From: Candidatus Thorarchaeota archaeon | Lineage (GTDB): Archaea > Asgardarchaeota > Thorarchaeia > Thorarchaeales > Thorarchaeaceae | DNA: 39,745 bases | Assembly (NCBI GenBank): GCA_048882045.1 | Contig: JBHLRZ010000032.1 | Location: forward strand, 1 to 39,745 | Reading direction: 5' to 3' | In this document: positions 12,329 through 31,718 of the stretch, one piece after another | How the letters are laid out: each line of letters opens with the position of its first letter | How positions within the stretch are numbered: position 1 is the stretch's first letter | Translations under genes and position numbers: made by a program | Notes under the pieces: generated by a model | What the model was told of the DNA's origin: nothing | Seen by the model: only the letters and a program-made list of their open reading frames with translations | Databases searched by the model: none

Positions 12329-14158
12329 CTATGTGTTTATCTCAAACCAATCAGGATATTCAGGAATTCCTCTTGCTCCGAAGTTGTAATTCCAGAAGAC
12401 CATCTCATCCCTTCCATGTTCTTCCTCGAACTCGGCCTCTCTGAATAGTCTCTCGACCGCTTCATTTCTGTCAGTCTTGATGTATTTGCCCACCAATAGA
12501 CTGGCCCCTTGTTTCTGAGCTTCATTCATCAAATATGTCAGGAATGTGGTTTCAACTGTCTTTCCCATGGCTCTGCATGAGAATGTGAGGACTTCCATGA
12601 ACCACTTGTCATCCTGCTTGTGGATTAATGAAACACCTATCAGACCGTACTCACCGTATTTGTCATCGAGATTTACGACATAGATCTCATAATCGTCTGA
12701 ACGATAGAACTCCAGGATCTCTTCTTTGGTGTATCTGATAGCTGTAGCATTCAGTTGGTTGGTTCTGAGAATGAGCTCAGTCACACGACCCAGATTTTCT
12801 GGTTTAGCCCTTCTAGGCCAGAGTTTCAGACTACATGCTCGAAGGAAAGACTCCTTGTCATAGAACTGCCGTTCAACACTCTCTCGCATCGCTTGCTGAG
12901 CATACATCTCAGCGCGTTTTGCACTCTCTCCAGTCAACTTGCCTACAGGTTCGAACTCAATTCGATTTAATGCATGGAGTATCTCTGTATCAGGTAGAAC
13001 TAAGACTTGCGGAAGAAATGTCTTGATTTGGTCTCTCTCATATGGATTGTCGTCAAAGAAAGCCAAAGAGTCTATACCAATGTTTAGTTCTTGGGCAATC
13101 TCTGCTAAGTTCTGCGCTTTGTCGTTCCAATTTATCTTCTTGATGGCAAACAGTTTCGAACTCTCTCCCAAGATGTCATCAACAAGTGAGACTAGTGTAC
13201 TATCGTTTTTGCTTGATATTGCGAGAACGATTCCTCGTTTTGTGAGTAGCTCAAGCGCTTTCAGTCTGTTTGAATGAAGGTTGATTCCCTCTACTCCATC
13301 ATCTCGGAGAATTCCATCCCAAAGGGTGTTGTCCAAGTCGATGACAGCACACTTTATTCTCCGACCATGACCAGTGATAACTTTGAGGTGGCCAATCAAG
13401 TCCTTCGCGACGGTGACCGCCCCATCCCTCGTGAGATGTTCATAGATTGCATCAGCATCGCTCTCACGTATCTGGTGACCGACACCTGCAGACAAGAATG
13501 CTTCATCAATGGACAGTACATACATGTCCTCCTCTTGCTTGCTCATCTCCAAGTAGAGCAGATCCAGACGTTTGAGGAACTCACGTAGACTATAGGCGTT
13601 TTCGAGGTGTTTGTAATCAAACCTGCCGTGGGCTGGTCTTATTGCAAGTGGATAATTCATGATAACGAATACAGCTGATAGTTTCTCTCGAGCAAGCTTG
13701 AAACCATTCAATAGTCTGTCCTTTGCCTGTTTCAACTGTTCTTCCTGTTTGGCAAAATCTATTGCGCCGTGTTGAATGTCGAATATGTAGTTGCGAATGT
13801 CCTGGACATCACTCACAACAACTATGCTGGGATTGAACTTGTAAATCCCTCCTTTGTCATCACCGAAAGCCAGGAATGGATTTGATGGTTCACTGTGGTC
13901 AAAGGTGTGATAGCATTGTGCTCCGTTTGCCTCGAGAAACTCCTTGATAAAGGATAGTTCACAACCTCCGACGAAACCTATTTTGAGAGATGACAGGAAC
14001 TCTTTGTCTGCATCCGATACACTTGCACTGGTAGGCGGTTTTGCAGCTCTCTGGGTTTCCTCAGTAAGTCTTCTGAGGATATAGTTTCTATACTTCTTGT
14101 CTCTGACTATCCTTCTCACGATGTTCAATATTCGTTGAGTTTGCACGACTTTCACCAT
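12329..14158 (-). CDS. fkbH: FkbH-like HAD-IIIC glyceryl-ACP synthase (SGNH-like N-terminus, HAD, GNAT-like C-terminus)
   Basis: IDLDNTLWDG, SSKND, INWNDK..N...IAQELNIG.DS..FFDDNPYER, RTNQLN, DKYGEYGLIG, SCRAMG. Confidence 0.92.
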   Translation of the reverse strand: MVKVVQTQRILNIVRRIVRDKKYRNYILRRLTEETQRAAKPPTSASVSDADKEFLSSLKIGFVGGCELSFIKEFLEANGAQCYHTFDHSEPSNPFLAFGDDKGGIYKFNPSIVVVSDVQDIRNYIFDIQHGAIDFAKQEEQLKQAKDRLLNGFKLAREKLSAVFVIMNYPLAIRPAHGRFDYKHLENAYSLREFLKRLDLLYLEMSKQEEDMYVLSIDEAFLSAGVGHQIRESDADAIYEHLTRDGAVTVAKDLIGHLKVITGHGRRIKCAVIDLDNTLWDGILRDDGVEGINLHSNRLKALELLTKRGIVLAISSKNDSTLVSLVDDILGESSKLFAIKKINWNDKAQNLAEIAQELNIGIDSLAFFDDNPYERDQIKTFLPQVLVLPDTEILHALNRIEFEPVGKLTGESAKRAEMYAQQAMRESVERQFYDKESFLRACSLKLWPRRAKPENLGRVTELILRTNQLNATAIRYTKEEILEFYRSDDYEIYVVNLDDKYGEYGLIGVSLIHKQDDKWFMEVLTFSCRAMGKTVETTFLTYLMNEAQKQGASLLVGKYIKTDRNEAVERLFREAEFEEEHGRDEMVFWNYNFGARGIPEYPDWFEINT

Positions 14159-14165
14159 GTTGGGC

Positions 14166-15062
14166 TTAGTTCCACCAGTCAGGATGTATCAGAACCTGTA
14201 CGATTTGACCAACCTTAGCTTCATATAGTCTATTAAAGCGGTATAACACCTTCTTGTCTTTTAATCGCTTTCCACCTGCGTCACTAAGATACATGTCAGA
14301 CTGCACATCATATGCTGATGAGATCTGAAGCGCTTCTTTGTCCACGTTTTCCCATATTTCCCTATTCTTGTATTCCTTCTGTCCGTGTGCAGCCACAACA
14401 CCCATCGGGGCAATCTCCCGAAGTTTCTCAATGTCTTTGCCAAGCAATTCTATTGCCTTCTTTTTGTCACCTTTTGCAACGCTTAGTGTTTCGTAATGAA
14501 GACCGATTTTGAATCCATCATCAACCAGCTTTTTGATTACAGGCACTGCTTCCTCAAAGCAATATTTCTCAGCATGTAAACGAAAGAAGTATGTTGCAGG
14601 TATTCCTAGTTCCGCCTGCACTTCCGCCATCTTGATGGTTCGAGGTAGTGATATGTCAACATCATGACGGAGAATCACATTGACCTTTTCCTGGTTGATG
14701 AGCCCACTTTCATACTCGTCGAACGTAATGACTGAATACCTCTCTTTACTGATAGTAATCATCAAATCTCTGAATTTGTCAATGGAGTATTCTTCTTTCC
14801 ACCAAGTAGCGAAGAGCTCAAGGAAGAGACATATGGTCGCCATAATTGTACAAACCCAAAATGTGGTCAGAGAAGTTGTAGGCCACGGCCACACAAAGGC
14901 TGGCAGAAACCACAGTATCATTGGAATGAGGGTGAGGAAGGGATAGAATCGAAGCATATCGAACAATTGTGTTGCATATCGGTACTGCATGACCAATGAA
15001 AAGCCAACGAACCCCGTTATTGCCACTGATGACACTATCAGAACTATGTCAAGGGGGTCCAT
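14166..15062 (-). CDS. Membrane-anchored polysaccharide deacetylase-like (NodB/CE4-like) protein
   Basis: Three N-terminal TM helices, then LRHDVD, ATYFFR, GLHYE, AAHG, LIHPDWW. Start placed at ATG 15062 after GAGGT; the ORF extends to 15116. Confidence 0.7.
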   Translation of the reverse strand: MDPLDIVLIVSSVAITGFVGFSLVMQYRYATQLFDMLRFYPFLTLIPMILWFLPAFVWPWPTTSLTTFWVCTIMATICLFLELFATWWKEEYSIDKFRDLMITISKERYSVITFDEYESGLINQEKVNVILRHDVDISLPRTIKMAEVQAELGIPATYFFRLHAEKYCFEEAVPVIKKLVDDGFKIGLHYETLSVAKGDKKKAIELLGKDIEKLREIAPMGVVAAHGQKEYKNREIWENVDKEALQISSAYDVQSDMYLSDAGGKRLKDKKVLYRFNRLYEAKVGQIVQVLIHPDWWN

Positions 15063-15210
15063 CTTGTTATACCTCAGGCTGCTCACATTTTTGCAGCGAT
15101 ATAACCATTGTGACACACATCATGAGTGTTTTCTAAAAAGATTCCAAGCTTTCGAGAGGAAACACTTTTCCTGAGAATCGAGAGAACTAACACTCGTTGG
15201 AGCTGCAATC

Positions 15211-16044
15211 TTGTTGATGGATATCATTCAAGGAGAACAAATCGTTAAACTATCCTCTGATACACAGATTGATCTACTTGTCCAAGGCAGTGGAAAGCCT
15301 GTAATGTGGTTACATTCAGGGTTTCGAGGGAGAATTGGGCTTGGGAACCTGATTTCCACTGTTGAAAGAAAACTCAATCAAGCTGACATACACTGGCTAA
15401 ACATAATTCCCAATCTTCCGGGATTTGGCGAAAGCACATCGACCTCCTCTCAGAACAATAATCCATATGAATTGACAGAAAATATCGAGGAACTCGTTAC
15501 TCTTCTTGATTATCCTTCTATCGATATCATAGGATTCAGCCTTGGAGCAAATGTCGCATCTATTTTGGTAAATAGGATACCTGATAGAATTCGCAGAGTT
15601 GTGCTTCTTGGAACTGCAGTTGAAGGAAGGAGTCTTGATGTCTACAGAAAATTGTTGGAATTATATGATAGAGAGGACTGGGAGGGTATTGTCAACGAAA
15701 TAGCTTTGAGTCTTGTTGGTAGGAAAAACCGAAGACAGTATCTCAAGATGATGCCTCTTGTAAAGAAACAGGTAGCTTCTGAGAGGTTTGCGATTGATCT
15801 TACACGGATTCTCTCTTCAGGAGTTCGGTTGGACATTTTCAGTGAACTGGAGAAGATTCCGCATCCAACACTTATGATCTCAGGAGAAGACGACCCCTTT
15901 AGACCAACTCCAAAGCGACTTGAAGTTCTGCAGAAGAAGGAAAATATCAAACTGATTCTTCTTGAAGGGATTGGTCATAATGAGATGGTCTTCCCAAGAC
16001 AAATCGATCTTTCAGATCAAATCCTAGAGTTTCTTGAGGACTGA
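15211..16044 (+). CDS. Alpha/beta hydrolase (possible thioesterase/esterase)
   Basis: NLPGFGES, nucleophile GFSLG, SGEDD acid, GIGHNE His. Confidence 0.88.
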   Translation: MLMDIIQGEQIVKLSSDTQIDLLVQGSGKPVMWLHSGFRGRIGLGNLISTVERKLNQADIHWLNIIPNLPGFGESTSTSSQNNNPYELTENIEELVTLLDYPSIDIIGFSLGANVASILVNRIPDRIRRVVLLGTAVEGRSLDVYRKLLELYDREDWEGIVNEIALSLVGRKNRRQYLKMMPLVKKQVASERFAIDLTRILSSGVRLDIFSELEKIPHPTLMISGEDDPFRPTPKRLEVLQKKENIKLILLEGIGHNEMVFPRQIDLSDQILEFLED

Positions 16045-16811
16045 ACAGCAAGAGTGAGTAAGTAATCCATATTGTGAACAAAGAACACAGGTATACCTAG
16101 CAGGGACTGTTCTGTTAGAGGTGCGACTGTAATTCTTTCTCTTTCTACAGACAATTTGAATTCAAGAGGTGATTTTGACTGTAAAGAAGAAGTCGCTTTG
16201 TATCCAGCTTCCAATGCTGACCATATAGCAGTATGGGCGAATTTCAAGTTAAAGTCAGGATGTGACTTCATCATTAAATTGGTTATTCGACTGATGTCCA
16301 TTTCCGTGTGGTTTTTTGCAATTCGTCTAGCAAGACCGGAGTGACTCGTCTGTTTTTCAATATCCAATCCTATATCACCCTCTCTAATACATGCAGCAAC
16401 TAGATACTCTCCTTTGTGACTGATAGACGCTGCACCTTCAAAGCTGACTTCGGAGTCTTTGAAATTGAAAAAAGGTCTTCCCTCTGAGTCGTTTTTAACA
16501 GTGATTTCTTGATACTTTATTGAGTCCCTTTCCCAAACGTCCTGTAGACAACGTTTGGCTAATACTCTTCCAACATAGTACTGCATCCTTCGACCGTCGT
16601 GCTTGAACTTAGTGAATCTTTGGATCTCGAATTTGGAAAGATGATTTTGCATGACCAAATCAGAAGGGCTCTTTCGAATGAGTGTGCAACCGTGTACAGA
16701 AAGCCCCAAATTTGTTTGTAAAAGCCGAGTATCTTCACTGAATGGAATCCTGTTATCAACCAACTTGCTGAAAGATCTCCTCAAAATCTCTAGCTCTTCC
16801 CTTTCAAGCAA
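16017..16811 (-). CDS. Sfp-type 4'-phosphopantetheinyl transferase
   Basis: GRVLAK, DSEGRP, SISHK, IGLDIEK, WSALEAGYKA. Confidence 0.87.
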   Translation of the reverse strand: MLEREELEILRRSFSKLVDNRIPFSEDTRLLQTNLGLSVHGCTLIRKSPSDLVMQNHLSKFEIQRFTKFKHDGRRMQYYVGRVLAKRCLQDVWERDSIKYQEITVKNDSEGRPFFNFKDSEVSFEGAASISHKGEYLVAACIREGDIGLDIEKQTSHSGLARRIAKNHTEMDISRITNLMMKSHPDFNLKFAHTAIWSALEAGYKATSSLQSKSPLEFKLSVERERITVAPLTEQSLLGIPVFFVHNMDYLLTLAVQSSRNSRI

Positions 16812-16813
16812 AC

Positions 16814-17884
16814 CTATGCCCCTCGAAATCTGTTTCTCAATTTACCTGCTACAATCTCTGGAGGGATCACAACAACCTCAGTGTCGAGTAAGTGCTGAAA
16901 GAAATGCTCTCCAGCTCTATAGCCTGGTGAGAAATTCTGTCTCGTCACTAACCGGATAAAACACCGACTAGTCGATTCATCTCCAGTTAAGTCTCCTAGT
17001 TCAAGGGCTAGATTGAATGAAGAATAATCCTCATCACCGTAGTAGGCTAAGACCTTTGAAACTCCTTTTGCCAAGTCCATAATGATACTCCCTGACTTAT
17101 CCATAAATCGACCTGATGGTAGAATTCCCCACACTTCATTTGTCTTGCTTGGTGAAAATGGAGTCAGCCAGTGGATAGAACCTGTACTCCCAATATACCG
17201 TTCATCCAATTCTATTTCTACTTCTATGAGATCTTCCCAATATTCATGACCATGCTTTTTATTATACGCTGCGACTGCATCTTGTATCTTCGCTGCATAG
17301 TTCAATGAATCGGAAGATATGATTAACTGCAAGTGAGGATGAACAGCGCTCGCTCCAGCAGGAGGCATATAATTGGAATTCAGAGAACCATAGAGAGTTT
17401 CATCTGTTGGTAGATATGAGATGAATTTCTGTGTTGAGACAAAGGCATCATTGAGAATTTCTGGAGTAAACTCATTTGGTTTCAAGAAATGTTTCTTGGA
17501 CGGAACAATGATCGCATGATATTTTGATAGAGGGAAAAGGTTAGGGAATAGTGTAGACTCGCCTATTGAAATCCTACCTTCAGGAATTATGTCCTTCTCA
17601 AATTTCGGAGTTGAGGTGAGGACCTTGTCAGGACAGAAGAAACATTTCTCACTACTTTCTCTCACCAGTTTGTCTAGAAATTCATAATCTGTGTATCCAA
17701 CAAGAGTCTCATACTTCTCAACGAGTCTCAGACCAATCAAACTCTTGCTTCCCAAAAGTGGATCTCGTCTCACTTCAATATCATGCGTGTCTGAATCAAA
17801 ATTCAACAAGGGATTCAGAATCACAGCTGATTCCTTGTATCTCTCGAGTTTGATCCTACCAGATGCACCTGCCATCTGCATCAC
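16814..17884 (-). CDS. Galactose-1-phosphate uridylyltransferase-like (GalT/HIT) nucleotidyltransferase
   Basis: EVRRDPLLG, CFFCP, FPNLFP, AGASAVHPHLQ. Confidence 0.85.
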   Translation of the reverse strand: MMQMAGASGRIKLERYKESAVILNPLLNFDSDTHDIEVRRDPLLGSKSLIGLRLVEKYETLVGYTDYEFLDKLVRESSEKCFFCPDKVLTSTPKFEKDIIPEGRISIGESTLFPNLFPLSKYHAIIVPSKKHFLKPNEFTPEILNDAFVSTQKFISYLPTDETLYGSLNSNYMPPAGASAVHPHLQLIISSDSLNYAAKIQDAVAAYNKKHGHEYWEDLIEVEIELDERYIGSTGSIHWLTPFSPSKTNEVWGILPSGRFMDKSGSIIMDLAKGVSKVLAYYGDEDYSSFNLALELGDLTGDESTSRCFIRLVTRQNFSPGYRAGEHFFQHLLDTEVVVIPPEIVAGKLRNRFRGA

Positions 17885-18858
17885 TCATCTTTCTTCTTCA
17901 TTTTAGCTACCTTTGTTCCAAACCGTTTGGCATGGTCTTTGACCACCAATCTCCAAGCCATGTTTGGCATGGCGTAGAATCCAGCCACTGACTCATTTTC
18001 AGGGACGTCTCTCACAGCAATAGCATTGATCAAGACACTGGCATTATCTCCAATAACAAGTCCATTAGAAACAGTTGCACCAATACCAATCCAGCAGTTC
18101 TCACCGATTACAGTACTTCCACCTATACAACTTGAGGCTGCAAGTTGACTATTTGATTTGACATGCACATTATGACCGATATGGACCATGTTGTCAATCT
18201 TCACACGATCTTCAAGAATTGTATCGCCGAATGTTCCACGATCCACACACGAGCTATTTCCAAATTCAACATCATCACCAAATTGCACACCACCAATGTG
18301 AATAAGACGGTGGATATTGCCCTCAGCGTCCTTCATTATACGATAACCGTCTCCTCCAATACTAGCATTCGCATCTATGATGTTTCTCTTGCCGATCCTC
18401 ACTCTATCATAGATAGCAGTGTTGGCAAAGATCTCGGTGTCGTCGTCGATGGTCACATCACTCCCAATCACAACATATGGATGAATCCTGACCCGATCTC
18501 CCAGAGTCACATTCCGACCAAATCGAACAGTGGGGTCGATGACACACTCTTTTCCTACAGTTGGCTTAGAGTCATCTGGTGTGAAGGACTTGACATCTTG
18601 ATGCCAAGTATTGTGAATCTCAAGAAATGCAACTAGTGCGTCGTCCACTTTAAAGTATGAATTCCCCTCAATCTTGGAAGCTTTGTCGTAAAATTTCGGT
18701 TCAACAAGAATGTATGCTCCTTTGTTTGGGGTGATGAGTTTCATGAACTGGACACGTGCGATATAGCTAATGTGTTTCTCCACCAAGTTCTGAATGCCAC
18801 ATGTGCCCTTTGCATCATTGGGAATTCCATATTTCTTGAGGACCTCTTTGATTATCAT
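17881..18858 (-). CDS. LpxD-like left-handed beta-helix acyl-ACP-dependent N-acyltransferase
   Basis: Hexapeptide repeats; IGGDGY, HIGGV.FGDDVEFG..SCVDRGTFGDTIL...VKIDNMVHIGHNV (LpxD catalytic His region). Confidence 0.85.
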   Translation of the reverse strand: MIIKEVLKKYGIPNDAKGTCGIQNLVEKHISYIARVQFMKLITPNKGAYILVEPKFYDKASKIEGNSYFKVDDALVAFLEIHNTWHQDVKSFTPDDSKPTVGKECVIDPTVRFGRNVTLGDRVRIHPYVVIGSDVTIDDDTEIFANTAIYDRVRIGKRNIIDANASIGGDGYRIMKDAEGNIHRLIHIGGVQFGDDVEFGNSSCVDRGTFGDTILEDRVKIDNMVHIGHNVHVKSNSQLAASSCIGGSTVIGENCWIGIGATVSNGLVIGDNASVLINAIAVRDVPENESVAGFYAMPNMAWRLVVKDHAKRFGTKVAKMKKKDE

Positions 18859-18921
18859 TATAGATCGATTTCATTGAATGTGCTCCGCCCTTTTGAATTA
18901 TACTTCGAAATGAAGTTGAAA

Positions 18922-20208
18922 CTATTCCAATAATGTCAAGTTATTCCAACATACTAAGCGACTCAACAAGAGAATACCATCCCAAGGTGAATCATAGATA
19001 TGCATCTGTCCAGGGGGTACTATTCTAGCAACACCACGGTACATGACGCCTTCAGCAAACTTCATTGACTTTTCTTGGTTGAGTATGCCATTACCAACTG
19101 TTTGAACATTACGAGTTATGAGATCAATTACATCCAGAACATTGGCTATCGGCTTTAGGAAAATGGTTCTTGATTGAATAGGTTCTTCTAATGCAAGTTT
19201 GCTGTCAATCAAAATTGTCCAATCATTCGTTTTTGATGCCATGACGTCTTTCTCAAGATCTAGAGCATACTCAGCTCGTTTGTTGATTATCATAGTGCCA
19301 CGGCCTGCATCGAAATCATTCTTTGGCATAAGCCTAGAAAGGCGTTCAAACTCATTGGATAGTTGTTGAGCAAAATGCGTCACACCTTCCATATTGGTTT
19401 CTAGGAAAATAACGTGGGGTGATGAACAGGCACTCTGCTCGAAAAGAACTGAATCCGTAGCAATGTTTCTTATGAATCTATCAAGTTTTTCAGAGGTCAG
19501 TGCCTCTTTATCAAAGACAGCGAAGGAGTACTTTGGTCCAAAAACAATGTCTTCACAATGGGTTTTCTTGGGCAAGTTTGTGATTGCTTCCACAGCTTCT
19601 TTCCCTCCCCAAACGACCCTTGCATCAGCTATCCTTGACAAAGCAGAATTGGCTTTGAAGTCATCGGATGGAAAATACACAACCGCTACCGACTTGAGAA
19701 GGTCTTTTCCTGTATAACCGTTTGATTCAACGGTGGCAAACAATTGTAGGATTGGAAGAACCGTTGATAGACTGACCTCTGGGATTCGGAGGATATTTCC
19801 ATTCTTTCCTATTATTGATTGAAATAGTGAGAAAAGACTCAGGGTTGGAATATTGCCAGCAATCCAATGACTCACTACACCTCTAGGAAAGGCTCGAAGC
19901 TTCTTCCTTTCATCTCCAACAAATGACTCGAGATAATCCTTGGATCCTAGATTGGTTTCGATGATTTTTCTGATGTTCTCACGCCTAAGCCAATTTGAGA
20001 GAAATGCAATTCCTCCAATTCCTTTCACTTTCTCGTCTCGAACAAGCAAACGACTGAAACTGTGAAGCATTTCAATTATGTCATTAACTGGAACACCAAA
20101 AAGAGAAATCATCCCTTCACGGATTTGTGTTTCGATTTTTATCAAGTCTTCAACTACGAGAACAGGATCATGAAACTCTCCATTGCTTGTAAGAAGTTGG
20201 ATTGATAT
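18922..20208 (-). CDS. LuxC-like acyl-CoA/acyl-protein reductase
   Basis: PRGVVSHWIAGNIP, WGGKEAV, FGPKYS, EQSACSSP. The frame is open ~20 codons upstream of the TTG at 20145, up to the luxE stop; start uncertain. Confidence 0.88.
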   Translation of the reverse strand: MSIQLLTSNGEFHDPVLVVEDLIKIETQIREGMISLFGVPVNDIIEMLHSFSRLLVRDEKVKGIGGIAFLSNWLRRENIRKIIETNLGSKDYLESFVGDERKKLRAFPRGVVSHWIAGNIPTLSLFSLFQSIIGKNGNILRIPEVSLSTVLPILQLFATVESNGYTGKDLLKSVAVVYFPSDDFKANSALSRIADARVVWGGKEAVEAITNLPKKTHCEDIVFGPKYSFAVFDKEALTSEKLDRFIRNIATDSVLFEQSACSSPHVIFLETNMEGVTHFAQQLSNEFERLSRLMPKNDFDAGRGTMIINKRAEYALDLEKDVMASKTNDWTILIDSKLALEEPIQSRTIFLKPIANVLDVIDLITRNVQTVGNGILNQEKSMKFAEGVMYRGVARIVPPGQMHIYDSPWDGILLLSRLVCWNNLTLLE

Positions 20209-20210
20209 GA

Positions 20211-21329
20211 TCAGTCCCCCCTACGTTCTGCGAATGTGTCGCCACACCCACGAGTTTCAGCTCTTTCCGCTCGCGATCGAAATTCAAAGTATTTCCCTTT
20301 CCTTCCACAAGGACAATCGTCAATACCAACGATTTCTCCAATATCCTCAGTAAGAAGCGCTTGACTCGGATAACTTGTTGCTATCGTAGACATGATCTCA
20401 ATAAGACCTGGTACACCCACAGGAGCCTCTTCCATTGTGTAGATGTCTCTTATGATCAATTCAGCAAAATCTGGGATGTGTTTGTGACCTTCAGCACAAT
20501 CTACAAAGAGCACACCAAGTTGCTCCACCATCCCATAATAATCAAGGACATTGTAAGGGTCTGTTCCAAATAGGGCTCCAACTTCTTTATTGAAAATGTC
20601 CTTTGTCACTGCTTGAGAAGTGAGTTTCTTCCATCCGCCACCATGAAGAATCTTAATGTTTGGTATGTTCAATTTTATCCCCTTCTCTTTCAAAGCTTGT
20701 AAGAATCTAGTCCAGATGATGTACGTAAATCCGAATCCTAAGACATCCTTGTCACTGTATTCATCTGCAAATGCTTGGAGTCTCTCAAAGTTGACATGTA
20801 GTTCTCCATCGATATTGTCCATAACATAAGCTGTTTTTCTGGCAAAACTTGAAATTCCTCTAATTGCCGCGCCTCTCGCAGTTATTGATGAAGCAGATGG
20901 ATCATTGACCTCCGCTGTATCCATTACCAAGAAGGGTCTTCTGGCTGTTCCCAGGAAACTTTTCAGTGATGCAACAAGGGCTCGTGTCTGACGCATGGCT
21001 GTGGTCTTGTCAATCGGAATCTTGCTTGGGATGCCAGTGGTTGTAGCACTGGAACTGAGTGTCCGGATGATTTGGTCATCTGCGCAAGTCTGTAGATTAA
21101 AGGTCTTGAACATAGTAACAGGGATCGGAGCCACATCAGCGAGAGAAGTGATTTCTTCTGGTGTACTGTTGAATGATTCATAGAATTTTCTCAACGCAGG
21201 ACTAGAGTCCATTGATGCACGAACTTGTTGCTTGACCAATGGCAGAAGGACCTGTTCTTTCTCTTGCTGTGAAACTTGGTATTGATCATTTGCAATTATT
21301 TCTTCAATGGTCACTTCTTCAGAACCCAT
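20211..21329 (-). CDS. LuxE-like acyl-protein synthetase
   Basis: IPVTMFK, SSSATTTGIPSK, HGGGWKK, DYYGMVEQ, LLTEDIG, CPCGRKGKYF, RGCGDT. Confidence 0.9.
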   Translation of the reverse strand: MGSEEVTIEEIIANDQYQVSQQEKEQVLLPLVKQQVRASMDSSPALRKFYESFNSTPEEITSLADVAPIPVTMFKTFNLQTCADDQIIRTLSSSATTTGIPSKIPIDKTTAMRQTRALVASLKSFLGTARRPFLVMDTAEVNDPSASSITARGAAIRGISSFARKTAYVMDNIDGELHVNFERLQAFADEYSDKDVLGFGFTYIIWTRFLQALKEKGIKLNIPNIKILHGGGWKKLTSQAVTKDIFNKEVGALFGTDPYNVLDYYGMVEQLGVLFVDCAEGHKHIPDFAELIIRDIYTMEEAPVGVPGLIEIMSTIATSYPSQALLTEDIGEIVGIDDCPCGRKGKYFEFRSRAERAETRGCGDTFAERRGD

Positions 21330-22387
21330 TGGACTAACTCCTTAAGATTATCCTCCGTCATTCGAACTGGTGAAGTCTTGATTGATGGATCTGCCAAAGT
21401 TTCTGAAATCCAAGAGTCAACATCAATCCCATCAAGAACTCTAGGAATTGTGTACGAAGACAAGCCTATCTCTTCGAAGTCCTTCTTTAAGTCTGAGTAA
21501 ATTGTATCGTCTGAAATACTCTCATGCCAAGAAAGGCATTTGGGAGTCAAAGTTATGACACCTGTACTATGTGGTGTGCCATTTTGTTGCTCAAGTGCAT
21601 GAGCCAATGCATGACAGACACCTACATACACACTGCCCGTTACTAGTCCGCCTAGATATCCTGCCTGAAGTAGCTTATCAAGTGCCTTTGGGCTTCCTGG
21701 TTTCTCCGTTAATTCTGATGATACCTCTTTCAGCAGACCTATGATCGATTTTGAAAGAGCTTTGGTCATTGGACTTGCTCTCTTAGAAAGAAGACTCTCA
21801 TTCGCGTGACCAAAAACATCTCCGATGAATATGTACAGTTGCTTGTCCTCTATTGTCTGAAGAAACGTCGAATCTAGAATAGCTACTTCAGGGACAAGGG
21901 ACTGGTGGATGTGGGGTATCTTTACCCCTGAGTCATTCTTGATTACAGCAGTTCCATTTGCTTCCGAACCAGTAGAAGGGGTTGTTGGTATGGCAATCAT
22001 CTCAATGGAACGTTTTGCAAGTTCGCTCTCGAGAAGATTGGAAAAGTCAATTGACGGATTTTCTAATAGCAGTCGCAAGACTTTGCTACTATCCATAACC
22101 TGTCCACCTCCAATTGCTAAAATCAGATCAATCTTTTTCGATGAATAGGTCTCTCTCAAGCGGAGAACCTCGGATTCTGTGGCCCTCGAACATGTTTCTT
22201 CAAATACAGAGTTGCCTTCCAGATTCTCAATCGCCTTTTGATAAGCCTCGTTTTCGCCTGCTTCTGGATATGCAACTATCAGGATGTTCTTACTTGATAG
22301 CTCCTTGAGAAGTGACACTGCTCCTTTTCTAAAATGTACACTTCGATTGTACATCAAACTTGGGATGATTGGTGAACCTTGAATCAA
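21311..22387 (-). CDS. Iron-containing alcohol dehydrogenase
   Basis: IGGGQVMDSSK, IPTTPSTGSE, D..GH..E, CHALAH, PH metal ligands. Confidence 0.9.
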   Translation of the reverse strand: MIQGSPIIPSLMYNRSVHFRKGAVSLLKELSSKNILIVAYPEAGENEAYQKAIENLEGNSVFEETCSRATESEVLRLRETYSSKKIDLILAIGGGQVMDSSKVLRLLLENPSIDFSNLLESELAKRSIEMIAIPTTPSTGSEANGTAVIKNDSGVKIPHIHQSLVPEVAILDSTFLQTIEDKQLYIFIGDVFGHANESLLSKRASPMTKALSKSIIGLLKEVSSELTEKPGSPKALDKLLQAGYLGGLVTGSVYVGVCHALAHALEQQNGTPHSTGVITLTPKCLSWHESISDDTIYSDLKKDFEEIGLSSYTIPRVLDGIDVDSWISETLADPSIKTSPVRMTEDNLKELVQWVLKK

Positions 22388-22391
22388 CTCG

Positions 22392-23891
22392 TTACACTCC
22401 CTGCTTGTTCAATTCTTTCAACTCAGCCATCATGACCTTTTCAGATTCGTTCTTTGGTAGGGTATCAAGGAACTTGATATGTTTCGGTACTTTGAATGAT
22501 GGGAGGTTTTTCCGACAATGTTCGACTATCTCTTTCTCAGTTAATGAACTGTCCTCATGAAGGACTACATATGCTTTTACTGCCTCACCCATTAGATCAT
22601 CGGGAACTCCAATTACTCCCACCTCGACTACATTGGGCAACTTTGCGATAGTCGCTTCTATCTCTCTTGGACTGATGCGATGTCCACCACTCTTGATTAT
22701 CTCCTTCTGCCTATCTACGACGAAAATGAATCCCTCTTCATCAACTGTTGCTATATCACCGGTGTAAAGTTTTCCATCTCTTAGAGTTTTAGCTGTTCCC
22801 TCGGGATCTTTCCAATATCCCATCATGATGTTTCCTCCTGACGCAACAATCTCACCAATCTCGCCAGGACCAACTGGAGTTCCGTCCTCCTTTAGGACCT
22901 CAAGAGTTGTTCTTGGTATTCCTTTCCCGCATGAACCAAGTTTAGATTCCAACAGCTTTGGTGGTAGATAGGATAATCTAGCTGTTGCTTCAGTTTGTCC
23001 ATACATAATGAAAATATCTGTTGTAGGCAGAGTCTCCACAAGTTCAATTATGAATGGATTAGTCAGCTTCCCTCCAGCCTGCGCAACAAATCTAAGATCA
23101 GGGAACTTCATCTTTTTGAGTGGTGATCTTCTCAAAAGGATCTGAAATGTGGAGGGGACTCCTGCAAAACCTGTGCATTTCTTCTCAACCATTTCATCAA
23201 GTACTTTGCCAGGAAACATGAAACGGTTGTTCAAGACATTTTGTCCACCAACTTTGGTTAAGGAATGCAGCCAACTTGCACCATAACAATATGAAAACGG
23301 AAGTACAACCATCATTCTGTCTTTGTCTGTCAACTCGAGATATTCAACAATAGATGAAGTATTCCAATGAATATTATGATGAGAAAGCATGACCCCTTTT
23401 GGTTTACCTGTTGAGCCGGATGTAAATAAGATGACAGCGAGTGTACTTTTTGCATCTGGGTCTCTGAACTCAAACTCTTTTCGAGGTATCGAACCAAAGA
23501 AGGTTGAATCTTCAATGTCCTCTTCATCAGTTATGATATTATCAAAGTTGTATTTTCGCACCTTCTTCAGATACCGTTTCTGAACAAAGGCTGTCTTGAT
23601 TTCACAAGTTTCCACAACAAAATCAAGATGTTCTTCACTCACAGAATGATGAAGAGGGACGGATACCAACTCAGCACCCATTGTTCCAAAATAAGTGGAA
23701 ACCCAGAAGAATGAATTATCAGAAATAAGCAGAATTTTGTCATTAGGCTTATGACCAAGGTCTATGAGTTTTGCAGAAACACTCTGAATGTTTGCGTATA
23801 GCTCCGGATAAGTAATCGTTTGGTCGTCAGCAAATAGAGCTATCTTTTGCATATCCTTTGATTTCTCGAACAAATCGTTGACTATATTCAT
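22392..23891 (-). CDS. Adenylate-forming acyl-ACP/acyl-CoA ligase
   Basis: FTSGSTGKPKG, MYGQTEAT, TGD, SGGHRISPREIE, LPKNESEK. Confidence 0.93.
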   Translation of the reverse strand: MNIVNDLFEKSKDMQKIALFADDQTITYPELYANIQSVSAKLIDLGHKPNDKILLISDNSFFWVSTYFGTMGAELVSVPLHHSVSEEHLDFVVETCEIKTAFVQKRYLKKVRKYNFDNIITDEEDIEDSTFFGSIPRKEFEFRDPDAKSTLAVILFTSGSTGKPKGVMLSHHNIHWNTSSIVEYLELTDKDRMMVVLPFSYCYGASWLHSLTKVGGQNVLNNRFMFPGKVLDEMVEKKCTGFAGVPSTFQILLRRSPLKKMKFPDLRFVAQAGGKLTNPFIIELVETLPTTDIFIMYGQTEATARLSYLPPKLLESKLGSCGKGIPRTTLEVLKEDGTPVGPGEIGEIVASGGNIMMGYWKDPEGTAKTLRDGKLYTGDIATVDEEGFIFVVDRQKEIIKSGGHRISPREIEATIAKLPNVVEVGVIGVPDDLMGEAVKAYVVLHEDSSLTEKEIVEHCRKNLPSFKVPKHIKFLDTLPKNESEKVMMAELKELNKQGV

Positions 23892-24127
23892 AATTCAACA
23901 CCGTGCTTCTTCAAAGCTTCTTTCATTAGCCCAATCGTTGTCATCTCTGTTATTTCTTCCACGTCAAGAGCCAAATCCCATTCATCTTCGAAGAACGCCA
24001 TAAGATCCATGTGCGTAACTGAATCCCAGGTTTCAAGATCGTCCGGAGTACTATCGTCTGAAAACTCCTCTAGTTCCACAGCAAATACTTGGCAGACATA
24101 TTCATTGAACTTATCGAGATGTGACAA
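23888..24127 (-). CDS. Acyl carrier protein
   Basis: 79 aa, acidic, WDSVTHMDL pantetheinylation motif, F...WDLALDVEEI. Confidence 0.9.
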   Translation of the reverse strand: MSHLDKFNEYVCQVFAVELEEFSDDSTPDDLETWDSVTHMDLMAFFEDEWDLALDVEEITEMTTIGLMKEALKKHGVEL

Positions 24128-24133
24128 CTCATA

Positions 24134-24541
24134 TCACCCCTTTTTTGATTTAACATGCATAACCCTAGATTCAGCAATCCCCTCAAGTACAATCTTCCCA
24201 TCTTGATTGTAAACCAATGTTTCAACCGTTGCGACATTCCTTTTATCGATTGACGTAACTCTCAGCTTTGCTGTGATATTGTCATTGATTCTTACTGGGT
24301 AGGTGTACTTTATTGTCTGACTCATCCAGAGGTTTCCCGGACCAAACATCTTTGTTAGTGCGGCTGAGACAAGAGCTGCAGAAAGAATGCCGTGTGCTAT
24401 TCGTCCTTTGAACATTGTTCTCTTTGCAAATTCCTCATCGGTATGAAGGGGATTATCATCACCACTAATCTCAATCAGTTTTTGTATATCCTCTTCAGTG
24501 ATTTTTTTACTGATTTCGATAGTGTTTCCGACCTTCATCAT
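24134..24541 (-). CDS. MaoC-family (R)-specific enoyl hydratase/dehydratase
   Basis: SGDDNPLHTDEEFA...FKGRIAHG, FGPG, PVRIND hotdog-fold motif. Confidence 0.92.
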   Translation of the reverse strand: MMKVGNTIEISKKITEEDIQKLIEISGDDNPLHTDEEFAKRTMFKGRIAHGILSAALVSAALTKMFGPGNLWMSQTIKYTYPVRINDNITAKLRVTSIDKRNVATVETLVYNQDGKIVLEGIAESRVMHVKSKKG

Positions 24542-24679
24542 GAGTCATGTGATGCAATCTCGAACTGTGAATAAGTCTTACTGATTCTCCTTTGTTAATT
24601 TGATTGCCACGCTACAATGTTTGGTCCTTATACCAATCAACATAGCCTTATATTTTTTAAAATGGCTCCTTACCATTAG

Positions 24680-25120
24680 GTGAACCAAATGAGCCAAGAA
24701 ACAAGTTGGATACCTTGCGTCTTCGAACTCGCTTCTGAAGTTGGCAAAGTCGTATGCACTCCTCAAGAGGTTGCTGTAAAGGAAAATGTCCCCAATATTG
24801 CACTGACCTATACTCTTACTGCACCTACACTGAAAGGAAGTCGTAGACTTCATCTGAGTGGTGTAATAGTTGGAATCACAAAAGCTGATCCTGCAAATCC
24901 AATAACCCGAATACAGGTTAGAGGTGTTAGACTTGACTCTGTTCAAGTCTTATGGGAGGATAACAATCGTCATGGTAATCCTTTCAAATTCCAAGCAGGT
25001 TTTCCACCTATTGATTGTAGTGGATGGGATGCTGTGAAGGTCGTAGTAAATGCAACTACTTCCGCTCAACCCCTTGCAGCTCGAGTCGGCTTCGTGTCAG
25101 TGCAAGGAACATACTACTAA
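24680..25120 (+). CDS. Hypothetical beta-rich protein (~143 aa)
   Basis: Likely start ATG 24689 after AGGTGA; protein-like composition; followed immediately by a long hairpin. Confidence 0.7.
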   Translation: MNQMSQETSWIPCVFELASEVGKVVCTPQEVAVKENVPNIALTYTLTAPTLKGSRRLHLSGVIVGITKADPANPITRIQVRGVRLDSVQVLWEDNNRHGNPFKFQAGFPPIDCSGWDAVKVVVNATTSAQPLAARVGFVSVQGTYY

Positions 25121-25209: not shown

Positions 25210-25719
25210 TCAGGTTTTATCTCCTAGTAGATCGACGAACCGATGTTCGTCCACATATTCCTCCCTGAGCTTGATTCCTTTGTCGATATCCTCTCTCCTC
25301 TCAGGACGAAGTTTCTCTAGTTCTGAGAAATACTCTCTGGTATCCTGTATTGCAGTTTTATCGATATTGTATTCCTCAGCAAGCTTTTCAGATATATCTA
25401 ACAGAGCTGAATAGATTGGAAACCAAAAGATGTGGTCCTTTGGTGATGGAATATACTGGTAGGGGTTGCGTTCAATCGTGACTTCTTGCGAGGGTGCCCA
25501 CATCACTAACACTCTATCGTAAATGTATCCCAATATCAAGAATGTGAATAGAATTACGCCTGCGAAAACAAATGGTCCTATTGATCCCATCTCAACGAAA
25601 AATGGAATATATTCATAATAAGCGATAGCTAGAAGCAGTATCCCATAGAACAATCCCCAGATTCCTCTAATTTGGATAACTCGCCATTGTTGTTTCATCA
25701 ACCATTTCTTTACACCCAT
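25210..25719 (-). CDS. Uncharacterised membrane protein (one copy of a KQxWR...YD...W...ERNP domain)
   Basis: Two TM helices; start ATG 25719 after AGGAG; paralogous to the upstream gene. Confidence 0.8.
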   Translation of the reverse strand: MGVKKWLMKQQWRVIQIRGIWGLFYGILLLAIAYYEYIPFFVEMGSIGPFVFAGVILFTFLILGYIYDRVLVMWAPSQEVTIERNPYQYIPSPKDHIFWFPIYSALLDISEKLAEEYNIDKTAIQDTREYFSELEKLRPERREDIDKGIKLREEYVDEHRFVDLLGDKT

Positions 25720-25723
25720 ATTT

Positions 25724-26752
25724 TTAGCTCCTTTTATCCTTCTGAAATAATACTCCATACGCTTTCCGTAGTTGTTGGGCTTCGGTCAGATCTTGAGTTC
25801 TGGAAACATCCAGATTCCAGAACCTTCCTAGATATATCAAAGCTTCATCAATCTCTTCAAGGGATTTTGATTTCGTCTTGAGGATATCTCTCATTGTCTT
25901 GAAGAATACAAACAAAAACGGATAGATCCTAGAATATAGATATGGCTCAGCTACATAGCTGTACGGATACCTCTCAATCTTCACAGCTTCATCCACGGAC
26001 CATATTTTCAATCTCTTGTCATAATACCAACCAAGAATTGTAAGGACGATTAACATCGGTAGGGATATCCCAAATATTGCGAAGAATAACTGATATTCCA
26101 ATGATGCTGCTGGAAACAGAATCACCACATAAAGTGCTCCAAAAACAAGAACATCTTGAACAAGACCTGTTAAGTTCTGAATCCAAGTCAACCTAAGCTT
26201 TTGAGTTTCAAATGCGAGTTTCACCCTACTACGAATTGGTATCTTGGTTTGAATTTGAACTTCAAACTCCTTGAAGGGATTATTCTCCATGTACTTTTGT
26301 GCAGCCTTTTCCATTGCCCTGATATCTCTCTTATCTGGCTTTGATTGAAAGAATTCATCCATGAAATGAATCAGATCACTCATTCTTTGGATATCATGTC
26401 CGATACTGTTTGCTACATCCTTCATTACTTGAATAAGGGTATAGAATATCGGATACTCCATTGTCAAACTTTTGTAATTCGGAACATAGTAGAATGGATT
26501 TCTTTCGGCTGAGGCTTGCATCATTTGACTCCACATTCTGGCCTTCTGATCGTACCACCAACCAACGCCAAGAAAGACAAAAATCAGAATGACCCCCAAA
26601 GAAAGTGCACCAATCCAACCTAAATCCGCAAGTACTGGAACATATCCAAAATAGTATCTCCCAAGTACCAACATTCCAAGACCAAGACTAGCGAGAGCTC
26701 TAATCGTGCCTATACGCCAGTATTGCTTCATTATCCACTTAGCCTTGGACAT
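25724..26752 (-). CDS. Uncharacterised membrane protein (two tandem copies of the same domain)
   Basis: Internal duplication GWWYDQKARMW...ERNPFYYVP / GWYYDKRLKIW...ERYPYSYVA; start ATG 26752 after GGAG. Confidence 0.8.
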   Translation of the reverse strand: MSKAKWIMKQYWRIGTIRALASLGLGMLVLGRYYFGYVPVLADLGWIGALSLGVILIFVFLGVGWWYDQKARMWSQMMQASAERNPFYYVPNYKSLTMEYPIFYTLIQVMKDVANSIGHDIQRMSDLIHFMDEFFQSKPDKRDIRAMEKAAQKYMENNPFKEFEVQIQTKIPIRSRVKLAFETQKLRLTWIQNLTGLVQDVLVFGALYVVILFPAASLEYQLFFAIFGISLPMLIVLTILGWYYDKRLKIWSVDEAVKIERYPYSYVAEPYLYSRIYPFLFVFFKTMRDILKTKSKSLEEIDEALIYLGRFWNLDVSRTQDLTEAQQLRKAYGVLFQKDKRS

Positions 26753-26834
26753 GTTCGTACGACTCCATATTGATTCCAAATGGCTTGGATGTGTCACGCT
26801 ATTTAATCTATTCTAGAATTTGGATGTTGTACTA

Positions 26835-27764
26835 TCAACTCTCCTTCCTATCACCTTTATGAGTCCAATCGACGAAGTCATACGTTGGAGGTCGTATAGC
26901 TAGAACTTCTTTTGATATTTCTTCAATATATGGCTCTTCAGATTCGGTGTATAGATTCTCATGGTATTTCTCACCGAATTCAGGTGATCCATATACTATC
27001 TTTCCAGGTTTTGACTGCTTAGTAAGCCATTCTTCAGCAACATCCACAATCTTACGGATATCATCCTCTCCAAGTGCTGGGATAAAGATGTCTCCACCTT
27101 TCATATTCTCAAAAGATTCCATCACAAATTTCACAGCACGATCAATGGAAATGAAATATCGAGTCATTGCTGGATCTGTCACAAGAATAGTTCCATCTTT
27201 TTCTAGTTGCTTGGCCCAAGCCTCAAAGACATTCCCCCTTGTTTCTCTGACATTAGGAAATCGGACAGCACTTAGTTTTATGTCTCTAGTTCCCTTGATG
27301 TAGTTTGCAGCTAGAATAAGACGTTCGCCGATAAGTTTCGTAGCTCCCATTAAGCTAGTTGGATTCACTGCTTTATCAGTGCTGATGTATACAAATTTCT
27401 CAACAGTATTAGAAGCAAATGCGGCTCGAATTACATTCTGTGTCCCTATCACATTTGTTTCAACTGCATCGAATGGATTATACTCACATAGTGCTACATG
27501 TTTGAGTGCTGCACAATGAAAAACATAGCTGACTCCATGCATTGCTTCTTGAAGTCGTGGATAGTCTCTAACACTTCCAACTAAGAATCTAACATTTCTT
27601 CTACCTTTGAGTTTCTGTTGAAGCATCCATATAGCATACTCATCACTATCAAAGACTCGAACAGTGTAGTCTTTTCCCTTGATACTCAGTAGGTGCTGTA
27701 CCAATGCTGATCCAATTGCACCTGCTCCTCCCGTCACAAGAATAGTGGATTTTGCCTTACTCAT
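26835..27764 (-). CDS. NDP-GlcNAc 4,6-dehydratase (PglF/CapD-type polysaccharide biosynthesis SDR)
   Basis: TGGAGAIG, HCAALKHV..CEYNP, STDKAVNP, MGATK, RFPNV, TDPAMTRYF, GEK.HE. Confidence 0.9.
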   Translation of the reverse strand: MSKAKSTILVTGGAGAIGSALVQHLLSIKGKDYTVRVFDSDEYAIWMLQQKLKGRRNVRFLVGSVRDYPRLQEAMHGVSYVFHCAALKHVALCEYNPFDAVETNVIGTQNVIRAAFASNTVEKFVYISTDKAVNPTSLMGATKLIGERLILAANYIKGTRDIKLSAVRFPNVRETRGNVFEAWAKQLEKDGTILVTDPAMTRYFISIDRAVKFVMESFENMKGGDIFIPALGEDDIRKIVDVAEEWLTKQSKPGKIVYGSPEFGEKYHENLYTESEEPYIEEISKEVLAIRPPTYDFVDWTHKGDRKES

Positions 27765-27915
27765 ACGATGTCAATACTGAAGCTGACCATCGTGGTTATG
27801 TTGTTTTCGGTGACTATCAGAGGTTATTATCAAAAGTCCCCGGAAGAGATAACAAATTTGATTCTAATGATAAGAATTCCAGCAACTATGCTACGCTTAA
27901 GTGGGAAAAATGCAA

Positions 27916-29040: not shown

Positions 29041-29043
29041 TGT

Positions 29044-29445
29044 CTAATCTCCTCCCTTATTGTGTACTTTTGCAGGAATACCAAATGCTACTGCTCCATC
29101 AGGAATGTCTTTGTTTACAAAGCTTAATGCTCCAATAACTGCATTCTCACCAATTGTTACACCAGGCATTACAACACTGTGAGAACCAATCTTTGCATTT
29201 TTCTTGATGACCACCTTTCCTGTCTTGTTGTCTATTGTTGAGTGAGAGTAAATGGAGCAATGTGAACCGACTTCAACTCCTTCTTGGATTTCAACTCCAT
29301 ATTGTGCATTGATATAGGTGAAAGAACCAATGTCTGTATTTGGTCCCAATTCGAGGTTCTCGTGATACTGGCATTTCCAATGCCATTTTGTCAAACCACC
29401 TTCATCAAATTCTGGAGATCTCCAGTTAGGGAATCGTTCACTCAT
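29044..29445 (-). CDS. Short hexapeptide-repeat acyltransferase
   Basis: VVIKKNAKIGSHSVVMPGVTIGENAVIGALSFVNKDIP....FGIPAK; GGTGAGG upstream of ATG 29445 (ORF extends to 29457). Confidence 0.88.
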   Translation of the reverse strand: MSERFPNWRSPEFDEGGLTKWHWKCQYHENLELGPNTDIGSFTYINAQYGVEIQEGVEVGSHCSIYSHSTIDNKTGKVVIKKNAKIGSHSVVMPGVTIGENAVIGALSFVNKDIPDGAVAFGIPAKVHNKGGD

Positions 29446-29457
29446 TATCCTCACCAT

Positions 29458-30624: not shown

Positions 30625-30648
30625 CAATATACTGCTCCTATGTACAAA

Positions 30649-31698: not shown

Positions 31699-31718
31699 AT
31701 TCTCTATCTTCCTTTCTG

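Follow-up and report, generated by a model that had tools for sequence, protein, structure and literature searches.

The closest described counterpart of the genes analysed here is the wbeK-L-M-N-O set of Vibrio cholerae O1 (rfbKLMNO, VC0248-VC0252), which is a proposed pathway for 3-deoxy-L-glycero-tetronate (2,4-dihydroxybutyryl) in the work of Morona et al. (1995), as cited in PMC12208996. According to the published annotation, wbeL (VC0249) encodes a ligase of 471 aa said to load 2,4-dihydroxybutanoate on coenzyme A (CoA) or on the carrier RfbK, wbeM (VC0250) an iron-type alcohol dehydrogenase (Fe-ADH), and wbeN (VC0251) an acyl-protein synthetase/acyl-CoA reductase of 825 aa; the support for the pathway is genetic only. 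The core of acyl carrier protein (ACP), ligase, LuxE and LuxC is also found in the flagellin glycosylation islands of Aeromonas group II (ACP, FabG, AMP-ligase, LuxE, LuxC) and of Enterobacteriaceae, where it adjoins pseudaminic or legionaminic acid genes and where its role is predicted. While this kind of module is already known from these two settings, here we describe a cassette of the same type in a 39,745-nt stretch of a Candidatus Thorarchaeota archaeon (contig JBHLRZ010000032.1; the whole stretch is called the window below). On balance we consider it probable that the cassette is an ACP-dependent acyl-donor module, which makes a small (C4) hydroxylated acyl group that is attached to an amino sugar.

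Seven open reading frames (ORFs) on the minus strand span positions 17881-24541 in the order MaoC, ACP, AMP-ligase, Fe-ADH, LuxE, LuxC and LpxD-like acyltransferase, and the conserved block runs on past the LpxD-like gene into a GalT-like gene, a phosphopantetheinyl transferase gene and an alpha/beta hydrolase gene (15211-17884):

24134-24541, minus strand: MaoC / PhaJ-type (R)-specific enoyl-thioester hydratase, single hot-dog, 135 aa (PF01575, 75 bits)
23888-24127, minus strand: dedicated ACP, 79 aa, with WDS motif (Ser36) (PP-binding 17.6 bits against a cut-off of 20.8, plus profile and structure checks)
22392-23891, minus strand: adenylate-forming (ANL) acid ligase, presumed acyl-ACP synthetase, 499 aa (PF00501+PF13193, 242+81 bits)
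21311-22387, minus strand: Fe-ADH, presumed aldehyde reductase, 358 aa (PF00465+PF25137, 106+50 bits)
20211-21329, minus strand: LuxE-type acyl-protein synthetase, 372 aa (PF04443, 209 bits; C-terminal RGC cysteine)
18922-20145, minus strand: LuxC-type acyl-thioester reductase, 407 aa (PF05893, 258 bits)
17881-18858, minus strand: LpxD-like left-handed beta-helix (LbH) protein, presumed acyl-ACP:amino-sugar N-acyltransferase, 325 aa (NCBIfam NF002060, 221 bits, cut-off 207)
16814-17884, minus strand: GalT-family (HIT branch) sugar-1-phosphate nucleotidyltransferase, 356 aa (profile and AlphaFold2 model)
16017-16811, minus strand: Sfp-type 4'-phosphopantetheinyl transferase (PPTase), 264 aa (PF22624+PF01648)
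15211-16044, plus strand: alpha/beta hydrolase, 277 aa, convergent to the block (PF00561)

The genes are closely spaced, with 6 nt between MaoC and ACP, an overlap of 4 nt between ACP and ligase, 4 nt between ligase and Fe-ADH, an overlap of 19 nt between Fe-ADH and LuxE, gaps of 65 nt between LuxE and LuxC and of 63 nt between LuxC and the LpxD-like gene, and again an overlap of 4 nt between the LpxD-like and GalT-like genes. LuxC would be 396 aa long if started at the ATG of the database entry P0001. An earlier note on this DNA had described a tightly coupled, partly overlapping seven-gene operon, and the coordinates, the domains and the spacing of -19 to +65 nt agree with that description; the PPTase that it mentioned is the gene at 16017-16811 (PF22624+PF01648). 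In two related Thorarchaeota loci (L003/L097 and L098) the PPTase keeps the same position, and hydrolase copies, 67% and 48% identical, lie at the same place. Hydrolases also come after LuxC in the cultured Lokiarchaeum ossiferum and Prometheoarchaeum syntrophicum, and we speculated whether the hydrolase could be an editing thioesterase.

Pfam assignment was unambiguous for six of the seven ORFs, the ACP being the exception with a score below the PP-binding cut-off (17.6 < 20.8 bits). A Pfam PP-binding search of the whole genome returned no match at all, missing even the window ACP, which reveals a problem of sensitivity; a family profile built from 26 ACP homologues was therefore used in place of Pfam and recovered the window ACP and a second ACP of the genome. 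This profile matches solved ACPs (2LML, E=1.6e-13; E. coli AcpP, about 1e-6), and the AlphaFold2 model of the protein (pLDDT 92.7) is a four-helix bundle in which helix II begins at the phosphopantetheine serine, Ser36, and which superposes on E. coli butyryl-ACP with a TM-score of 0.83. Trp34, Ser36 and His39 are invariant in the 26 homologues (Trp-x-Ser...His), and a small ACP-type gene upstream of the ligase is kept in dozens of loci. ACP with an acid ligase and ACP with LpxD are textbook partner pairs.

The remaining proteins were assigned with their catalytic residues. The best solved relative of MaoC is the short-chain PhaJ 5CPG (E=8e-28), with 1IQ6 also matched, and its translation holds the hydratase-2 motif GDDNPLH of the PhaJ/MaoC family. 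Feruloyl-, o-succinylbenzoate-, oxalyl- and malonyl-CoA ligases are the nearest solved relatives of the ligase, and FadD13 ranks behind them. In the LuxC/LuxE pair both catalytic positions are conserved: the LuxC cysteine (ACSS) aligns with ACFS of Photobacterium phosphoreum LuxC (7XC6), and the acylated C-terminal cysteine of LuxE (RGC) is the invariant column C368 of our alignment A1. The LpxD-like protein aligns with Acinetobacter baumannii LpxD (4E75, E=1.7e-29) including the catalytic HIGHNV segment, and has retained the N-terminal domain, which aligns with the uridine-binding domain of LpxD. Its TIGR01853 score of 212 bits lies under the LpxD equivalog cut-off of 242.5, and neither LpxC nor a ketosynthase-type fatty-acid synthase was found in the window's genome (93% complete). 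Since LpxC is absent, the LpxD-like enzyme would not be serving lipid A, and it is predicted to be a repurposed ACP-dependent N-acyltransferase; with lipid A LpxD it shares the fold, the catalytic histidine segment, the N-terminal domain and the ACP-dependent donor, but its host is an archaeon without lipid A and its partner ACP a divergent dedicated carrier. The GalT-like protein matches ADP-glucose phosphorylase 1Z84 (2.6e-20) and E. coli GalT by profile, and its AlphaFold2 model (pLDDT 93) has the GalT fold (Foldseek to 1Z84, E=1.4e-17, TM-score 0.65/0.73). Residues C81 and C84 (CxxC), H132, H182 and H184 (HxH) are invariant and Q186 is near-invariant, giving the CxxC + His and H-x-H-x-Q motifs of the GalT family (HIT branch III). 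Judged from the translations, the analysis shows every predicted enzyme of the cassette to be present with intact catalytic residues, in one tightly coupled unit with its own PPTase.

Set beside V. cholerae wbeK-O, the window has ACP, adenylating ligase, Fe-ADH, LuxE and LuxC functions and then a transferase in the same order, with the ACP gene running directly into the ligase gene (4-nt overlap) and the Fe-ADH gene lying between the ligase and LuxE/LuxC. The synteny put forward in the earlier note is thus borne out by the published order of VC0248-VC0252, the likeness being one of published gene order and not of sequence comparison. Likeness also extends to the location in a surface-glycan locus and to the predicted product, an N-acyl group on an amino sugar. 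On the other hand, V. cholerae has LuxE and LuxC joined in a single protein of 825 aa, where the window has two separate genes, and the window adds MaoC, the LpxD-type transferase, the GalT-like enzyme and a PPTase of its own. The flagellin islands differ from the window by having a short-chain dehydrogenase/reductase (FabG) for Fe-ADH, no MaoC and no dedicated PPTase, and by being bacterial. Luminescence LuxC-LuxE (PDB 7XC6) belong to the same two families, and their catalytic cysteines are kept in the window proteins; the similarity of the window LuxC to luminescence LuxC is remote (E=2.9e-21), on the NCBIfam equivalog models of LuxC and LuxE the window proteins score far under the cut-offs (118/750 and 79/550), no luxA/luxB luciferase or luxD was present among the window ORFs, and the context is glycan synthesis, unlike that of the luminescence operon.

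In the pathway that we propose, the PPTase would turn the 79-aa carrier protein into its holo form, and the ANL ligase would adenylate one carboxyl of a short dicarboxylic acid, with a C4 compound (malate, fumarate or succinate) as the most likely candidate, and bind it as a thioester to ACP. LuxE would activate the other carboxyl as acyl-AMP and then as acyl-S-Cys, LuxC would reduce the LuxE-bound acyl group to the aldehyde and Fe-ADH would reduce the aldehyde to the primary alcohol, with the PhaJ-like MaoC adding or removing water across C2-C3 of the thioester, so that hydroxy- or dihydroxybutyryl-ACP would result on the carrier. The LpxD-like enzyme would then use this thioester to acylate the free amino group of a hexosamine carried on a nucleotide, and the GalT-like nucleotidyltransferase would probably supply or regenerate the nucleotide sugar (UDP-GlcN type). 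A substrate with two carboxyls is proposed since the cassette pairs two adenylating enzymes with a single carrier and further has a thioester reductase and an alcohol dehydrogenase, following the logic proposed for tetronate. The translational coupling of the LpxD-like and GalT-like genes suggests that this pair makes a UDP-hexosamine with a new N-acyl group, bypassing GlmU-type acetylation. The MaoC step, which V. cholerae lacks, would introduce or eliminate a hydroxyl at C3, so that a 3,4-dihydroxy- or 3-hydroxy-type product is as plausible here as the 2,4-isomer.

Circumstantial evidence, drawn from independent sources, indicates that the chain is short and favours a C4 hydroxyacyl group. 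MaoC is closest to C4-C6 PhaJ enzymes, the ligase most resembles enzymes that activate small or dicarboxylic acids, the sister cassette of Clostridium described below stands beside the gene for 4-hydroxybutyryl-CoA dehydratase (abfD), and reported glycan masses match C4H6O3. A nonulosonate with one acetyl replaced by C4H6O3 has a computed mass of 376.148 Da, and Aeromonas piscicola AH-3, whose island has ACP-FabG-ligase-LuxE-LuxC, has a 376.14-Da pseudaminic acid derivative as linking sugar and a glycan ending in a 102-Da unit. Likewise, a diamino-dideoxy-hexose with acetyl and C4H6O3 (C12H20N2O7) has a computed mass of 304.1271 Da, which is the exact mass of the linking sugar in the N-glycan of the cassette carrier P. 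syntrophicum (304.127 Da).

For the distribution among Asgard archaea, 400 species genomes were searched with the Pfam LuxC family. Cassette-type LuxC matches (E about 1e-70 to 1e-79) were found in about a dozen of them (~3%), and in 1 of the 27 genomes of the window's own genus, and this patchy occurrence makes the module an accessory part of variable glycan islands and not a core trait. Two genomes with the strongest Pfam LuxC scores (G130 and G123) contained another type of LuxC and no cassette (L107, L108) and were set aside. Ten more Asgard loci share the order ACP-ligase-FeADH-LuxE-LuxC, and in most of them MaoC and a small LbH acyltransferase lie close by; a DegT aminotransferase is a frequent companion. 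Such recurrence indicates that the arrangement did not arise by chance. Both cultured Asgard archaea carry the cassette: in L. ossiferum the locus comprises GT4, DUF354, LbH, MaoC, ACP, ligase, ADH, LuxE, LuxC, hydrolases and DegT, and in P. syntrophicum a GT4 gene (phosphoglycosyl transferase) directly precedes ACP, with PPTase, LbH, MaoC and DegT in the same locus.

Beyond Asgard, species genomes were scanned with a fusion alignment, and LuxE/LuxC relatives came up at more than 400 loci in at least 401 species genomes; the following counts are based on 80 of these loci. The ligase was present in 75 of the 80, ACP in at least 52 and a sugar-modifying gene in at least 28, whereas Fe-ADH homologues (3/80) and MaoC (5/80) were rare; the form with Fe-ADH and MaoC is the Asgard variant of a widespread ACP-ligase-LuxE-LuxC core. 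The core adjoins sugar genes in other archaea as well (Methanomassiliicoccus, Woesearchaeota, Methanobacteriota and Methanohalophilus). Archaeal loci and many bacterial ones have DegT, LbH or LpxD-like, GT4 and NeuB genes as neighbours, and an LpxD-like gene is found with the cassette in, among others, Methanomassiliicoccus, Methanobacteriota and Labilithrix. Natural fusions of Fe-ADH with LuxE (734 aa, Hermodarchaeota, P0121-P0123), of LuxE with AMP-ligase (about 858 aa, e.g. in Methanohalophilus, P0124/P0139) and of LuxE with LuxC (755-827 aa, many bacteria, P0126 and following) indicate that these enzymes work together. No V. cholerae locus was among the 80, no Vibrio appeared in the Fe-ADH search, and no Vibrio-named protein was found among the LuxE fusions, which came from soil and gut metagenome-assembled genomes (MAGs). 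In Enterobacterales, the order holding Alteromonas, LuxE/LuxC pairs were present in 46 of 401 sampled genomes (about 11%); the best fused match in this sample (G794) was considered as an O1-type locus and ruled out, having no Fe-ADH. The literature that we searched on Asgard together with ACP, LuxC or nonulosonic acids yielded no account of the cassette in archaea, and we found there no mention of its occurrence in Asgard or of the longer Thorarchaeota form that includes LpxD-like, GalT-like and PPTase genes.

The phylogenies were largely congruent. Among the 89 sequences of the LuxE tree, those from Asgard (11), other archaea (3) and Clostridium (8) formed one clade (SH-aLRT 99), the ligase tree set the same archaeal and Clostridium group apart from all other bacteria (support 98), and the LuxC tree was compatible, making the LuxE, LuxC and ligase clades congruent. 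The sampled gammaproteobacterial LuxE sequences fall in the other major clade of the LuxE tree. The support for a nesting of Clostridium within archaea, 80-85, is too low to settle this placement or the direction of transfer. The Fe-ADH falls in a clade specific to Asgard, and no close bacterial relative of it was found among the best 120 matches; Asgard relatives reach down to about 30-38% identity, beyond which only generic Fe-ADHs follow at 25-31%, suggesting that this enzyme was recruited within the archaeal lineage.

The acp-caiC-luxEC genes of Clostridium are the closest bacterial sequences (LuxE 51-55%, LuxC 40-44% and ligase about 50% identity). MaoC follows LuxC in two of these loci, as a part shared with the archaeal cassette, but the Clostridium operon, unlike the archaeal one, has no Fe-ADH inside, no acyltransferase and no sugar genes. 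Instead, in 6 of the 8 loci the sister cassette adjoins genes for a sigma-54 activator and 4-hydroxybutyryl-CoA dehydratase (1U8V, E=1e-246), and the C. ganghwense locus also has a succinate CoA-transferase, an acylating aldehyde dehydrogenase and an Fe-ADH. We observed the series acp-ligase-luxE-luxC, sigma-54 activator, dehydratase, NifU and CoA-transferase in loci L002, L028, L030, L031, L033 and L036, and the dehydratase is 82% identical between species. The sigma-54 regulon of XanR in Clostridium was previously shown to include acp-caiC-luxEC, co-regulated with abfD-nifU, and was annotated as butyrate/butanol synthesis (Nie et al. 2019, PMC6615313). The operon is linked to 4-hydroxybutyrate fermentation. 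A location mainly away from glycan loci, which the earlier note had named as an argument against its reading, was found in this sister clade only and not in archaea, and its statement that archaea generally lack ACP overstates the rarity, as the module is present in several Asgard classes and in Methanomassiliicoccus, Woesearchaeota, Methanobacteriota and Methanohalophilus.

The archaeal nature of the host was confirmed. Rpb5/RpoH-domain proteins and Nre are encoded on the same contig in an archaeal, TFIIB-free context, and the best matches of LuxC and Fe-ADH are Thorarchaeota/Sifarchaeia MAGs with 77-83% identity. The TatD-HD-MoCF flank is syntenic with two other genomes of the same family (L003/L097 and L098), in which the entire block, MaoC to hydrolase, occupies the corresponding site. 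Given this synteny with two cassette-bearing Thorarchaeota genomes and the uniform G+C content across the window, we rejected the possibility that the cassette reflects recent bacterial contamination or a misbinned contig. One of the Rpb5/RpoH proteins (194 aa, 8600-9184, plus strand) has an N-terminal match to the Mrr_cat restriction-endonuclease fold (E=1.4e-6) ahead of its Rpb5 C-domain, and a paralogue lies at 7989-8552.

The cassette is situated in a glycan island, of which the following further genes were identified:

26835-32426, minus strand: legionaminic-acid-type nonulosonate genes, variable context (dehydratase, aminotransferase, small acetyltransferase, NeuC, NeuB and CMP-transferase; Pfam)
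14166-15116, minus strand: membrane-anchored CE4-like putative deacetylase, variable context (Atlas model)
12329-14158, minus strand: FkbH-domain protein, variable context (TIGR01686, 257 bits, cut-off 147)

NeuC (412 bits, cut-off 236) and NeuB (461 bits, cut-off 400) were well above their thresholds, and the set includes a single small LbH acetyltransferase (29044-29457). The acylated sugar made by the cassette may feed this legionaminic pathway to give an N5-acyl nonulosonate, in which the small acetyltransferase would acetylate N7; alternatively, it could be used directly by the glycosyltransferases of the island. At 24680-25120 on the plus strand, between the membrane-protein genes and MaoC, lies a 146-aa ORF with no Pfam match, and an AT-rich TTTAAAAAATATAA stretch is located about 105 nt upstream of the MaoC start, which together suggest that the cassette and the legionaminic acid genes are separate transcription units. 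A 122-aa ORF on the minus strand (24578-24946) looks spurious. The two paralogous membrane proteins at 25210-26797 (minus strand) belong to no family that we recognised; a similar pair (41-63% identity) lies in opposite orientation a few kb from the cassette in a related Thorarchaeota genome (L003:1111-2653; L097:18558-19998), and the pair may belong to the same functional island. Residues 110-316 of the CE4-like protein adopt a deacetylase-like fold in the Atlas model (TM-score 0.84-0.86). Homologues with 23-25% identity were seen beside LpxD-like genes and the cassette in two myxobacteria-like MAGs (L026, L042), which hints at a deacetylase and N-acyltransferase pair performing an acyl swap.

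Several observations weigh against a C4 acyl donor for amino sugars. We infer the substrate, the chain length and the acceptor, as well as the order of the ligase and LuxE steps, from the gene content. The mass matches to C4H6O3 are compositional only and come from other organisms, and for the 304.127-Da linking sugar the authors propose HexNAc+Thr, which has the same formula (PMC11284389). The Clostridium sister clade is without glycan context, the top NCBIfam names of the ligase, all far below cut-off, are those of long-chain fatty-acid ligases, and the analogy to V. cholerae may be convergent, as the Fe-ADH has no close bacterial counterpart. Finally, the nonulosonate genes are absent from the related Thorarchaeota loci that retain the cassette, the nearest relatives having a PIG-L deacetylase, a glycerophosphotransferase and methyltransferases instead; the legionaminic link is therefore weak and at best specific to this genome.

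These points leave room for a lipidation module, in which the ligase would load a medium- or long-chain fatty acid, MaoC would provide (R)-3-hydroxyacyl-ACP, the LpxD-like enzyme would N-acylate UDP-GlcN towards a lipid-A-like glycolipid or lipoglycan, and LuxE, LuxC and ADH would make a fatty alcohol. Canonical LuxCE indeed reduce C14 acids, the LpxD-like protein scores above the cut-off of an NCBIfam LpxD subfamily, and the authors of the flagellin-island papers guessed at a "liposugar", to which the ligase names could be added. However, those names score far under their cut-offs, small or dicarboxylic acids are the substrates of the ligase's nearest solved relatives, MaoC is nearest to short-chain PhaJ, and the genome is without LpxC and ketosynthase-type fatty-acid synthase. 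Moreover, the sole homologous cassette with a known product, that of V. cholerae, makes a C4 acyl group, and the observed glycan masses fit C4H6O3 and not a fatty acyl. Lipidation is thus quite unlikely.

A second explanation would be that the true donor is glyceryl-ACP from the neighbouring FkbH, with the LpxD-like enzyme installing glyceroyl and LuxE, LuxC, ADH and ligase serving another product or tailoring the group. The FkbH-domain protein (257 bits) is encoded 3.7 kb downstream, glyceroyl is known on some bacterial nonulosonates, and a Terriglobia locus joins two ACPs, ligase, LuxE, LuxC and an FkbH homologue (a MAG locus, L072, in which the homologue is 28% identical to the window FkbH). 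Yet the related Thorarchaeota and Loki loci have retained the cassette without any FkbH gene, and the need for two adenylating enzymes would be left unexplained. FkbH systems also bring their own carrier: at the end of contig C70 of the same genome we observed a second carrier operon (L113:210-2767, minus strand) with a 79-aa ACP of the same family (profile E=7e-18), a 607-aa FkbH and a 164-aa AcpS-type PPTase, indicating that the window FkbH need not share the cassette ACP. FkbH as the true donor is therefore very unlikely, and a second acyl route through FkbH beside the cassette is possible. A metabolic role apart from glycans, i.e., reduction of C4 acids for fermentation or detoxification as in the XanR regulon with an incidental position in the glycan island, would accord with the Clostridium clade, where abfD and CoA-transferase genes adjoin the cassette, sugar genes are missing from the surroundings and the published annotation is butyrate/butanol synthesis. 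It is nevertheless highly improbable, since all archaeal loci that we examined combine the cassette with an LbH or LpxD-like acyltransferase, and most of them also with an aminotransferase or glycosyltransferase, and since the LpxD-like and GalT-like genes of the window are translationally coupled to the cassette.

Returning to the C4 acyl donor for amino sugars, we also considered a more specific version, in which the GalT-like and LpxD-like enzymes would form a UDP-GlcN(acyl) factory that bypasses GlmU and places dihydroxybutyryl from a C4 dicarboxylate at N-2 of the hexosamine before the legionaminic pathway. The product would be an archaeal N5-dihydroxybutyryl nonulosonic acid, with the 3,4-isomer arising via MaoC as opposed to the 2,4-isomer in cholera, and the cassette would be archaeal in origin, later passed to Clostridium and rewired there to 4-hydroxybutyrate fermentation. 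It is unlikely that this version holds in all its parts.

Taken alone, the window offers a modest gain, being one more instance of a widespread module; its informative feature is the added set of LpxD-like, GalT-like and PPTase genes, which points to a route of the acyl group onto a nucleotide sugar. To our knowledge, carrier-protein chemistry is regarded as nearly absent from archaea, and here a dedicated ACP with its own PPTase occurs in predicted glycan tailoring, in the lineage closest to eukaryotes. Since the cassette is carried by cultured archaea, its chemistry is directly testable, and one biochemical study of the module would bear on the tetronate branch of cholera O1 and on the "fatty-acid" genes of the flagellin islands, and possibly also on the 304.127-Da linking sugar of the Prometheoarchaeum N-glycans.

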